Source of the DNA: a virus
Direction: 5' to 3' (one strand)
Length of the DNA stretch: 12,485 nucleotides
UHGV virus genome: UHGV-0140160
Shown here: positions 1 to 2,111 of the stretch, in pieces
Numbering within the stretch: position 1 is the first letter of the stretch
Layout of the letters: each line of letters begins with the position of its first letter
Notes under the pieces: model-generated
The model's input: the letters and a program-made list of their open reading frames with translations, nothing else
Told to the model about the DNA's origin: nothing
The model's database searches: none
Position numbers and translations under genes: made by a program

Positions 1-2111
1 GAGGGCCACGGAACAGGTACACCAACGGGCAGCGCAGAGCCTTCCCCCAAACCAAGGTAATCAAGAACTCCCTGAGTGCTGGTTTTACCAAGAATGGCAC
101 GTCCAACACTTGTCAACGCGGTTAACGCGGCACGATCTGCCCCTGTAAAATATGGGAGTTTATCTGCTGATGTAGCAAGCTCCGCCAGCGCCGTCAGGGT
201 GGCATCCTTCGATTGCTTACCCGCAAGCGCGTTAGTCATGGTAGTCGCAAAGTTCGGGTCATTGCCCAGCGCCGCAGCCAGTTCGTTCAGCGTGTTCAGT
301 GCATCAGGGGACGAATCTACAAGTGCGGCAATCGCAGCCATAACGAAAGCCGTGCTTGCGATCTGGGTATTATTAGTCCCCTGTGCCGCTGTTGGTGTTG
401 TTGGCGTTCCGGTCAGTGCCGGGCTGATTAATGGTGCTTTCTTGTTCGTTTCATCCATTACCGCCTTAACAGCTTTTGGTGTCGCTGCCAGCGTTTCAGA
501 CGTGCTGTTCGTGGCGCTACTGAGCTGAACAAGGCCTTTTCGTGCCGTAGTTGCGTCCTGTGCTGTGTATTTGCCATTAGCAAGATCATACGCTGCCTTA
601 ACTGCCTTAGGCGTTGCTGCAAGAGTTTCAGACGAGCTGTTGATGGCACTACTAAGTTGTACAATGCCGCTCTGAGTGAGGCTGGCTGCTGGTACGTCGG
701 TAATCTGGCTCCAAGGGTGGTTATGGCTGGCGTTGGCACACTCTGCAAAGCGAGCACTTAACCAGGAACTCAACCAACCGTCTCCCCACTGACTGCCATA
801 CACATCACCACCGGTGCTATAACGTGCATCCCCTATCAGAAGCTCTTTTAATGAGGTAATACTTCTTTCCGTGAAAAGGAACACACGCTGGCCGTTGGCG
901 AACACGGACAATACGCCGTCTCCTTCCTGTTTAATTCCGGTATCGTAATCGCCCAGCGTCAGAGAGTTCCCCCCCAGTCTGTTGTTGGTATTGATGCCGA
1001 ATGCAGAGGTCTGCGGCAGATTAAGTTTACCTGTCATGGTGTCGCCATCTTTGGCAACTTTTTCTCCAATCAGGCGAGTCACTGTCGCGGAAAAGTTCGG
1101 GTCATTACCAAGTGCTGCGGCAAGCTCATTCAGGGTATCAAGAGCTTCTGGTGATGAACCAACCAATGCGGATATGGCAGCTCTTACATAAGCGGTCGTA
1201 GCAATCTGCGTGTTATTCGTACCCTGTGCAGCGGTAGGCGCAGTAGGTATTCCCGTTAATGCAGGACTTGCCAAAGGCGCTTTGAGGGCCAGGGCATTGT
1301 TGATAGTTGTGCTAAAATTCGGGTCGTTATTGATCGCAGCTGCTATTTCTTTCAGCGTATCCAGTGTGCCAGGTGCACCATTGATAAGCGCATTTATAGC
1401 AGCATAGACAAAGGCCGCATTTGCGATCTGCGTGTTGTTTGTTCCGGGTTCAGGTGTTGGCGAAGTCGGCGTACCTGACAGATGCGGACTATCGAGCGGA
1501 GCTTTTGTATCAACCAAATCATGGAGAGTTTTGACAGCCAGAGGTGTAGCCGCTTTTCTTTCTTCTGTACTGCTTATTTCATTAGAGAATTCGACACCAA
1601 CAGCACGGTTAACCCGGTATTTAAGCAAAATCATTTCTTTAGTCACAGCCGTTGCGCCGCTAGGCACGATAACTCGACATAATTCAATTTGATTCTGCCC
1701 AACAGTATTGTCCGTACGCGCGTAAATTCTTGCAGCACTGACAGAAGATGCGCTATCTACCTGTGTCGTTTTTACACCATGTTCAAAATTGGCTTCCAGC
1801 ACAATAATGTTGGTAGCCCCTGCCTTTACCGAGACAGTCACATCTTCTATTTGCTGAACGGATATCTGAACATTATTCACATCTACTGAAGCAGCCCCTT
1901 TACCTTCTGAGTTTTCAGAAGTTATACGGACGTTCAACCCTGTGCCGGGAACTGGTTCAAATCCACAGTAAAAGCCAGGCAAAACAATATTTTTAAGTTT
2001 TCTGTTAAGAGCCGAACTACTATAGAGTTCGAAATATTGAACATCAGCAAGCAACGGCTGTGAGACACCAGAGGATAGCGTCATTATGCTTTTCGTTTTA
2101 TCAGCCCCCAT
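1..2111 (-). CDS. Tail fibre protein, P1 S / Mu S / P2 H / lambda Stf family; first 703 codons only, gene continues past the window start (partial)
   Basis: Minus-strand frame opens at ATG 2111-2109 (GAGGG 7 nt upstream, 2 nt after the stop of the preceding gene) and stays open to base 1. It is absent from the ORF track only because its stop lies outside the window. Hand translation starts MGADKTKSIMTLSSGVSQ and contains hallmark tail-fibre motifs: GDTMTGKLNLP; duplicated G(I/L)VQLSSA(I/T)NS(S/T)SETLAATPKAVKA; three copies of GTNNTQIA-TA(F/Y)V...LDTL(N/K)E(L/I)AAA(L/I)(G/N)NDPNF; and the constant-region signature KDATLTALAELATSADKLPYFTG...VLDYLGLGEG. Confidence 0.88.
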   Translation of the reverse strand, partial: MGADKTKSIMTLSSGVSQPLLADVQYFELYSSSALNRKLKNIVLPGFYCGFEPVPGTGLNVRITSENSEGKGAASVDVNNVQISVQQIEDVTVSVKAGATNIIVLEANFEHGVKTTQVDSASSVSAARIYARTDNTVGQNQIELCRVIVPSGATAVTKEMILLKYRVNRAVGVEFSNEISSTEERKAATPLAVKTLHDLVDTKAPLDSPHLSGTPTSPTPEPGTNNTQIANAAFVYAAINALINGAPGTLDTLKEIAAAINNDPNFSTTINNALALKAPLASPALTGIPTAPTAAQGTNNTQIATTAYVRAAISALVGSSPEALDTLNELAAALGNDPNFSATVTRLIGEKVAKDGDTMTGKLNLPQTSAFGINTNNRLGGNSLTLGDYDTGIKQEGDGVLSVFANGQRVFLFTERSITSLKELLIGDARYSTGGDVYGSQWGDGWLSSWLSARFAECANASHNHPWSQITDVPAASLTQSGIVQLSSAINSSSETLAATPKAVKAAYDLANGKYTAQDATTARKGLVQLSSATNSTSETLAATPKAVKAVMDETNKKAPLISPALTGTPTTPTAAQGTNNTQIASTAFVMAAIAALVDSSPDALNTLNELAAALGNDPNFATTMTNALAGKQSKDATLTALAELATSADKLPYFTGADRAALTALTSVGRAILGKTSTQGVLDYLGLGEGSALPVGVPVPWP
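42..67. other. Candidate Din-family (Cin/Gin/Hin-type) inversion crossover site at the constant/variable junction of the tail-fibre gene
   Basis: 26-bp sequence ttcccccaaaccaaggtaatcaagaa with the central core aaaccaaggt identical to the centre of hix/gix-type sites as I remember them (TTCTTGAAAACCAAGGTTTTTGATAA). It lies exactly where the conserved constant region ends (encodes LDYLGLGEG). Dyad symmetry of the arms is weak (6/12). Confidence 0.3.
220..1481 (-). repeat. Intragenic direct repeats of the tail-fibre gene: three ~200-bp units (about 220-416, 1058-1262, 1275-1481) and a tandem ~130-bp pair (about 470-730)
   Basis: Seen directly: near-identical DNA blocks such as gcgatctgggtattattagtcccctgtgc / gcaatctgcgtgttattcgtaccctgtgc / gcgatctgcgtgttgtttgttccgggttc, and agcgtttcagacgtgctgttcgtggcgctactgagctg / agagtttcagacgagctgttgatggcactactaagttg. 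They encode the repeated peptide modules listed for the tail-fibre CDS. Unit boundaries are approximate. Confidence 0.8.

Follow-up and report, generated by a model that had tools for sequence, protein, structure and literature searches.

The stretch of DNA analysed here, referred to throughout as the window, is the 12,485-nucleotide (nt) virus sequence UHGV-0140160, and its left end is occupied by the 5′ part of a long tail-fibre gene. The open reading frame (ORF) lies on the minus strand (window 3–2111), starts with an ATG at position 2111 that is preceded by GAGGG at a distance of 7 nt, and stays open for 703 codons until it exits through the left end of the window. PHROG tail-fibre families match it with E = 0. 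The first 1020 nt of the gene (window 1092–2111) are 97.3% identical to the D6 gene annotated as 'long tail fiber protein, similar to P1 gene S', and nucleotides 1–1034 of the coding sequence are 96.8% identical to D6 orf35 (MF356679). The ORF is a tail-fibre gene of the P1 gene S type, of which the window holds the constant segment (Sc) and the first codons past the crossover site. The source element is a D6-like, P1-related phage-plasmid, as judged from the identity of its tail and baseplate genes to those of D6 and from the plasmid replicon on the same molecule; the window resembles ∼90 kb non-mobilisable Escherichia coli plasmids at 95% nt identity.

The fibre protein consists of an N-terminal domain (amino acids 1–169, window 1605–2111), defined by its homology to the gpS proteins of D6 and P1, and a shaft that is largely made up of two types of repeated module. 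The shaft starts with a degenerate partial a module, a0 (amino acids 170–202, window 1506–1604), which is matched at residues 173–202 by a module hidden Markov model (HMM) and is related to a1 by blastp with E = 4e-4; the HMM finds a0 in the window and in every relative examined. Two b modules of 74 residues (222 nt) each follow: b1 (amino acids 203–276, window 1284–1505) and b2 (amino acids 277–350, window 1062–1283). They are separated from the distal repeats by a central non-repeat shaft domain, C, beginning DGDTMTG (amino acids 351–476, window 684–1061). Beyond it lie a1 (44 residues or 132 nt; amino acids 477–520, window 552–683), a2 (37 residues; amino acids 521–557, window 441–551) and b3 (74 residues; amino acids 558–631, window 219–440), the last of these belonging to an a-a-b block that resembles P2 gpH. 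A link that contains the motif KLPYFTG (amino acids 632–681, window 68–218) connects b3 to the crossover site. All of these segments are encoded on the minus strand; the b modules and a2 were placed with the module HMM and by alignment.

The a modules belong to the Pfam family Phage_fiber_2 (PF03406), found with 145 bits (cut-off 22) over three stretches, the best of them covering residues 477–517 in a1. No part of the fibre matches an NCBIfam model, and the b module is without a Pfam match as well. Pairwise amino-acid identities are 58–79% among the b copies and 65% between a1 and a2, with blastp E-values (for a nominal database size of 1e6) of 1e-19 to 6e-25 and 2e-11, respectively. In the Sc part of gene S, the GenBank records of P1 (M81956 and NC_005856) list as repeated elements an a0 of 36 bp, an a1 of 132 bp and two b units, b1 and b2, of 222 bp each, and the module HMMs read P1 gpS as a-a-b-b and gpH of the P2-family phage Wphi as a-a-b. 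The a and b modules of the window are the 'repeated elements' of P1 gene S, with a corresponding to PF03406. The original prediction of a repeat-rich tail-fibre shaft at 220–1481 was right in naming a tail fibre and in seeing genuine protein modules, and its coordinates were nearly right. It also counted the full copies correctly, as three of ∼65 residues and two of ∼43; their sizes need to be revised to 74 residues for b and 44 or 37 for a, and the partial a0 has to be added.

The repetition exists at the protein level only. Near-identical DNA blocks had been proposed to encode the modules, but the b copies share just 56–67% of their nucleotides in a multiple alignment (64–67% pairwise) and a1 and a2 share 69%; b1 and b2 are 56% identical in DNA and 58% in protein. 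A direct repeat of 74 nt at 80% joins window 463–536 and 595–668 in a2 and a1. A single 15-mer, AATGACCCGAACTTT, is the sole exact repeat of at least 14 nt in the entire coding sequence, and Tandem Repeats Finder reports no array in window 1–2111. Where two copies carry the same amino acid, they use the same codon at only 30–42% of positions. The copies in the window are old, and at synonymous sites their divergence is close to saturation. Sharing no exact match above 15 nt, they are poor substrates for homologous unequal crossing-over.

Three further features of the shaft may be mentioned. An HxH motif (ASHNHPW; fibre residues 463–465, window 717–725 on the minus strand) lies within the central non-repeat domain; in certain trimeric fibres and spikes of phages, such motifs hold metal ions. 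A 150-residue ORF runs antisense to the fibre gene (window 76–528, plus strand) and recurs in plasmid pKOr024_2 (NZ_CP147095, our locus L002) at 4076–4528. It lies wholly within the a/b module region and most probably is a side effect of the way in which the Ala/Thr/Ser-rich repeats are encoded. The fibre gene becomes richer in GC towards its distal end, with 43% in the N-terminal domain, a value like that of the neighbouring genes, and 55% in the distal a-a-b block and the cix region; this is consistent with an import of the distal parts from P2-like phages.

For comparison we used 24 fibres that share the N-terminus of the window gene, namely those of 17 IMG/VR loci, D6 and six plasmids, with modules scored by HMM. 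This set was preferred for module counts to a protein homologue search with the N-terminal 202 residues, which returned 13 mostly partial proteins. The length of the constant segment was taken as the residue position of the YLGL peptide motif that is encoded at the cix-like site. The shortest fibre, that of pPEC399_3, is a0-b with 330 residues. D6 and three others have a0-b-b (404 residues), seven loci have a0-b-b-b (478 residues; an eighth exits its contig before the motif) and two loci have a0-b-b-b-b (552 residues). Among the fibres with a central domain, the IMG/VR locus 2778261184_000007 (L012) is a0-b-C-a-a-b (611 residues), pKOr024_2 is a0-b-C-a-a-a-b (655 residues) and the window gene is a0-b-b-C-a-a-b (685 residues), while loci L023 and L024 carry a0 and a single b followed by C and seven or eight a modules (793 and 837 residues, respectively).

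The steps between these lengths are exact multiples of 74 or 44 residues (330/404/478/552, 611/655, 611/685 and 793/837). The window gene is longer than that of L012 by exactly 222 nt, and differs from that of pKOr024_2 by +222 and −132 nt, in both cases against a background that is 90–100% identical. Some of the relatives also contain fresh tandem copies. In locus L013, b2 and b3 are 100% identical in DNA and Tandem Repeats Finder reports a 222 nt unit present 3.2 times at 95%; b2 and b3 of locus L014 are 99% identical, and L023 contains a 300 nt unit (a-a-linker) present 3.1 times at 98%. The obvious explanation for these tandem expansions is that units which were still similar underwent unequal recombination or slippage. 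A variation of shaft length in whole module units among the relatives is thus supported by the sequences. The earlier suggestion that the repeats serve as substrates for unequal recombination, and that shaft length could vary between relatives, accordingly holds for the relatives, with their whole-unit differences and near-identical tandem units, and not for the copies in the window itself.

The two proximal b modules of the window can be placed within these arrays. At the DNA level b1 is 90–95% identical to the first b of the D6-like relatives, and b2 is 92% identical to b2 of D6 and 88–91% identical to the last b of the relatives with three or four copies. In these terms b1 corresponds to the first and b2 to the last unit of the relatives' tandem arrays. 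The single b of L012 was considered as a simple recombinant of b1 and b2 of the window type and rejected, since it is only ∼65–78% identical to either. The central domain is found in L002, L011, L012 and L023–L025, occurs in a diverged version in plasmid pAPEC201603 (NZ_CP127300, L027) and is missing from D6. From a0-b-b into the first part of the central domain the fibre of pAPEC201603 agrees with that of the window, and then it diverges; it is only 659 residues long and lacks the cix-coded motif. Behind the fibre gene of this locus (2232–4642) come a fibre-assembly gene and a holin gene in place of inverted cassettes, and the fibre appears to be a non-invertible variant.

In addition to changes in unit number, the shaft carries a joint between two fibre lineages. 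Within b2 the minus strand switches from a D6-type to a pKOr024_2/L012-type sequence inside the 9 nt CCGAACTTT (window 1092–1100). Relative to D6, coding-sequence positions 841–1020 are 100% identical and identity falls to 22–47% from position 1021. Relative to L012 and pKOr024_2, shifted by one b unit (222 nt), identity is 57–68% before position 1000 and 97–100% from about 1003. The switch sequence belongs to the codons for N-D-P-N-F, an invariant motif at the end of b2, and this motif is also contained in the only exact 15 nt repeat of the gene. The complete plasmid pAPEC201603 has the junction between b2 and the central domain too and matches window 970–2111 in one piece. L012 in turn covers window 1–1225 in one piece at 94%, overlapping the former match by 255 nt.

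Parts of the shaft also resemble fibres of other phages. Window 1092–1562 is 83% identical in DNA to the a1-b1-b2 region of P1, and window 141–648 (a1-a2-b3) is 86–87% identical to many P2-like H genes, with matches at this level spanning window 140–668; b3 is 94% identical to b2 of L012 and 89% identical to the b module of Wphi gpH. The central stretch (residues 351–476) shows 58% amino-acid identity to T2 gp37 over 64 residues and 45–64% to parts of Fels-2, SJ46 and Yersinia phage fibres. Because the a0-b1-b2 DNA is 83% identical to P1, far above what a neighbourhood with 43% protein identity predicts, the shaft, and not the N-terminus, is the exchanged part of the fibre.

The resulting architecture can be set against the known systems. 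The P1 gene S has the same gene position, a homologous N-terminus, 132 nt a units and 222 nt b units, an a0 at the same relative place and a cix-type site that closes the constant segment, to which the putative site of the window would correspond, but its N-terminus is only 43% identical and its a-a-b-b shaft places the cix-coded motif after 453 residues instead of 685, so that the constant segment of the window is roughly half as long again. D6 orf35 shares the N-terminus, a0, b1, b2 and the neighbouring genes; there b2 leads almost directly to cixR (404 residues), whereas the window adds ∼280 residues that comprise the central domain and the a-a-b block. The S genes of pKOr024_2 and L012 are 92–100% identical in DNA from the joint in b2 to window position 1, with the link between b3 and the crossover site continuously identical at 92–94%, and they share the central domain, the a-a-b block and the cix-like site. 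The window, with two b units against a single one, exceeds both by exactly 222 nt, and with two a units against three it falls short of pKOr024_2 by exactly 132 nt. In gpH of the P2-family phage Wphi (AY135739) the a-a-b block (residues 170–323) is 86.6% identical in DNA to window 141–648, while its N-terminus is unrelated and its baseplate context is different; fibres of the P2 type have neither a b-b array nor a central domain. Solved structures are available for two module-level matches. The Mu gpS chain (PDB entries 5yvq, 8ju3 and 9ki1) contains one a module at residues 98–150, with the a2 region matching 5yvq and 8ju3, and the gp4 tail collar fibre (PDB entry 9d93) contains the C-terminal half of b within residues 152–261 (b3 match, E = 2e-9). 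The remainder of both proteins does not align with the window fibre by sequence.

The N-terminal domain behaves differently from the shaft. Over its first 172 residues the fibre is 96.5% identical to D6 gpS, and the domain is 93–98% identical in all 17 IMG/VR loci that carry it. Compared with P1 gpS, blastp gives 42.9% identity over 168 residues (E = 6e-44), and a tblastn search matches the S genes of P1, P7, RCS47 and SJ46 with E-values of 1e-34 to 3e-35. The genes next to the fibre gene give the scale for this distance. The order S-R-16-bplA-pmgA-sit-pmgB is common to the window, D6 and P1, and all six neighbours have P1 homologues. The R homologue (window 2114–2560, minus strand; PHROG 2032) has its stop codon 2 nt before the fibre ATG and is followed, on the basis of P1/D6 homology and gene order, by the homologues of gene 16 (2673–3515), bplA (3525–4955), pmgA (4952–5326), the tape-measure/transglycosylase gene sit (5332–9270, minus strand) and pmgB (9325–10146). 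Over most of their length R, gene 16, bplA, pmgA and pmgB are 41.8, 43.4, 42.0, 43.6 and 41.2% identical in amino-acid sequence to their P1 counterparts, and for Sit the best BLAST alignment with P1 covers only ∼150 residues, at 45%. Identities to D6 are 90.5% for R (D6 orf36), 83% for bplA, 81% for pmgA and 77% for gene 16.

Since the N-terminal domain is 93–98% conserved in the relatives and its distance from P1 (43%) equals that of its neighbours (41–45%), it is the vertically inherited, lineage-specific end of the fibre. It is not a swapped baseplate-attachment domain, as first proposed: it is nearly that of D6, is retained in every IMG/VR locus of the set and has diverged from P1 like the genes around it. 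The proposal had described the first 230 residues as free of recognisable motifs. The repeat-free part is ∼170–200 residues long, and within it this description is borne out, as the domain matches nothing in Pfam or NCBIfam and an N-terminal profile run against PDB sequences finds the b-module part of 9d93 as its sole match, giving no solved homologue by sequence. An AlphaFold2 model of residues 1–202, built from an eight-row alignment, reached a mean confidence (predicted local distance difference test) of 49.8 and was judged unusable. P1 R is a proposed baseplate wedge protein similar to T4 gp8, and a wedge role has also been proposed for P1 BplA (PMC9024508). From where the N-terminal domain lies, from its having diverged at the pace of the adjacent baseplate genes and from these proposed roles, we infer that it is baseplate-proximal and docks the fibre on the baseplate. 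A comparison of the relatives had been suggested as a check, with an identical repeat number and N-terminus counting against the proposal; the repeat number is found to differ, in keeping with a variable shaft, and the N-terminus to be the same, which removes the swap.

The constant segment ends at a putative cix-like 26 bp crossover site, TTCTTGATTACCTTGGTTTGGGGGAA (window 42–67, minus strand). It can be aligned to cixR as annotated in both D6 and P1, TTATCCAATACCTTGGTTTAAGAGAA, with which it shares 18 of 26 bases and the invariant core TACCTTGGTTT. The window therefore contains essentially the whole of Sc and ends ∼40 nt into the variable part. What may lie further on can be seen in pKOr024_2 (locus positions 1–4063), where six inverted-repeat arms of 184–242 nt end at the same site or a few nucleotides short of it. 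Four of the six arms abut annotated alternative C-terminal cassette ORFs, and five cassette ORFs start with MGEGSALPVGVPVPWP. In pPEC399_3 a gene for a 'recombinase family protein' adjoins the cassettes. The arrangement in pKOr024_2 is that of a multi-cassette inversion system similar to Min of p15B, unlike the two-state C segment of P1. Judging from these relatives, inversion presumably also operates in the element studied here, with alternative receptor-binding tips being swapped beyond the site.

Taken together, we consider it highly probable that window 3–2111 (minus strand) is the Sc part of a D6-like homologue of P1 gene S, with a modular, mosaic shaft that changes length in whole units behind a conserved N-terminus. 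The proposal from which we started, that near-identical DNA repeats make this very shaft recombinationally unstable and that its N-terminus was taken from another type of baseplate, would explain why the protein repeats are so obvious, why copy number differs between relatives and why searches of Pfam and NCBIfam find nothing in the N-terminal domain. It is nevertheless very improbable, given copies at 56–69% nt identity that match exactly over no more than 15 nt and are not detected as a tandem array, and an N-terminus that is 93–98% identical in 17 IMG/VR relatives and 96.5% identical in D6 and that stands as far from P1 as its baseplate neighbours do. From the near-saturation at synonymous sites we infer that the window gene is the stable product of past events and not an actively unstable array.

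A purely structural origin can also be envisaged, in which the repeats reflect nothing but the periodicity of a trimeric fibre and relatives differ through wholesale replacement of fibre genes instead of through gain and loss of units. The great age of the copies within the window gene fits such an origin, and so does the wide exchange of segments in mosaic fashion with P1, P2-like and T-even fibres. Length steps of exactly 74 or 44 residues, or multiples of these, on a collinear, 90–100% identical background do not, and the adjacent units in relatives that are 95–100% identical would be left unexplained, making this a very unlikely reading. There is a technical alternative as well, namely that a0-b-b-C-a-a-b is an assembly chimera in which short reads of a D6-type S gene, a pKOr024-type S gene and/or the H gene of a P2-like prophage were joined at module motifs. 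The whole combination of window 1–2111 is absent from PLSDB, the phage set and 5,426 complete E. coli genomes, in which no record covers more than 91% of it, and the joint falls within a conserved motif, as such an artefact would lead one to expect. The frame is, however, open through 703 codons, and each junction is separately attested, by pAPEC201603 for window 970–2111 and by L012 for window 1–1225, with the 255 nt overlap between them. Because every junction is found independently, we regard a chimera as highly unlikely.

A modular, mosaic Sc with length changes in whole units is therefore retained, and several points weigh against individual parts of it. D6 and L012 are stand-ins for the parents of the joint, and the homology at the real crossover may exceed the 9–20 nt that is seen. 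Which way each event ran, and by what mechanism, is deduced from extant sequences. The third-codon positions of the NDPNF motif in 48 unique b modules are conserved to a raised extent for D and P (0.85 and 0.92) and not for N and F (0.50–0.58); this mild elevation is not convincing and lends no support to a selected recombination site. Docking on the baseplate is a putative role of the N-terminal domain. Finally, the invertible segment itself is located beyond the left end of the window.

With these points in mind, the following picture may be drawn. The ∼170-residue N-terminal domain, diverging in step with the baseplate genes, would dock the fibre on the baseplate. The shaft is assembled from interchangeable modules, in this case a0-b1-b2, a central segment similar to T2 gp37, and a1-a2-b3. 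It would end at the cix-like inversion site, beyond which alternative receptor-binding tips would be exchanged. Two processes alter shaft length by whole units across the family: tandem duplication or deletion of units while the copies are still nearly identical, as seen in the relatives, and recombination between different fibre genes at strictly conserved module motifs, for which the joint at NDPNF in b2 is the local example.

Elsewhere in the window, the sit homologue encodes 1312 residues compared with 1140 in P1 and ∼1260 in D6, and given these differences tail length may differ too. Boxes of the P1 late promoter LPs were sought 5′ of R, with no obvious counterpart found. The tail genes are adjoined by a plasmid origin that resembles P1 oriR (window 10218–11354), consisting of a perfect DnaA box TTATCCACA (10218–10226), GATC-rich 11 bp repeats (10230–10290), five 21 bp iterons TCAACGCTAGCGGGTAAATCA (10330–10431) and a gene for a Rep3/RepB-type initiator (10461–11354, plus strand). 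An Icd-like ORF follows (11730–12065, plus strand; host cell-division-inhibitor domain, NCBIfam NF033153 with E = 7e-12, PHROG 1426). In the plasmids that are closest over R to pmgB (95% nt identity; H121–H126) the match ends at ∼10250, and more distant plasmids (84–86%) carry the RepB gene and the Icd-like gene across the stretch beyond this point. As the closest tail relatives stop where the distant ones continue, the replicon module seems to have another history than the tail module.

The window gene is a new combination of known modules and represents an ordinary, known kind of mosaic fibre. The modules, the repetition in P1 gene S and the exchange of segments among P1, P2, Mu and T-even fibres have long been established, and taken alone the gene matters little. 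The repeats of the P1 tail fibre were reportedly described by Guidolin, Zingg and Arber (1989), and Haggard-Ljungquist et al. (1992) and Sandmeier (1994) are reported to have described the sharing of motifs among P1, P2, Mu, lambda and T-even fibres. What is added here is a data set from one lineage in which a fixed baseplate-proximal domain, length quanta of 74 and 44 residues, freshly amplified units and a joint mapped to 9 nt are found together. These data may also assist the in-frame engineering of P1/D6-type fibres, for example in transduction or delivery vectors. Caution is warranted with short-read annotation or assembly of such fibre genes, which is error-prone.

A further reading, which we put forward as speculative and rather unlikely, takes the quantised shaft length (one to four b modules, two to eight a modules, with or without the central domain) as a second selected axis of host range and the NDPNF-type motifs as in-frame linkers. 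The data behind it are the length polymorphism and one joint in an NDPNF-type motif. If it is true, shaft length would tune the reach of the fibre to the depth of O-antigen or capsule, alongside multi-cassette inversion of the tip, and the invariant NDPNF-type motifs would let P1-, P2- and T-even-type fibres be spliced without loss of trimer register.

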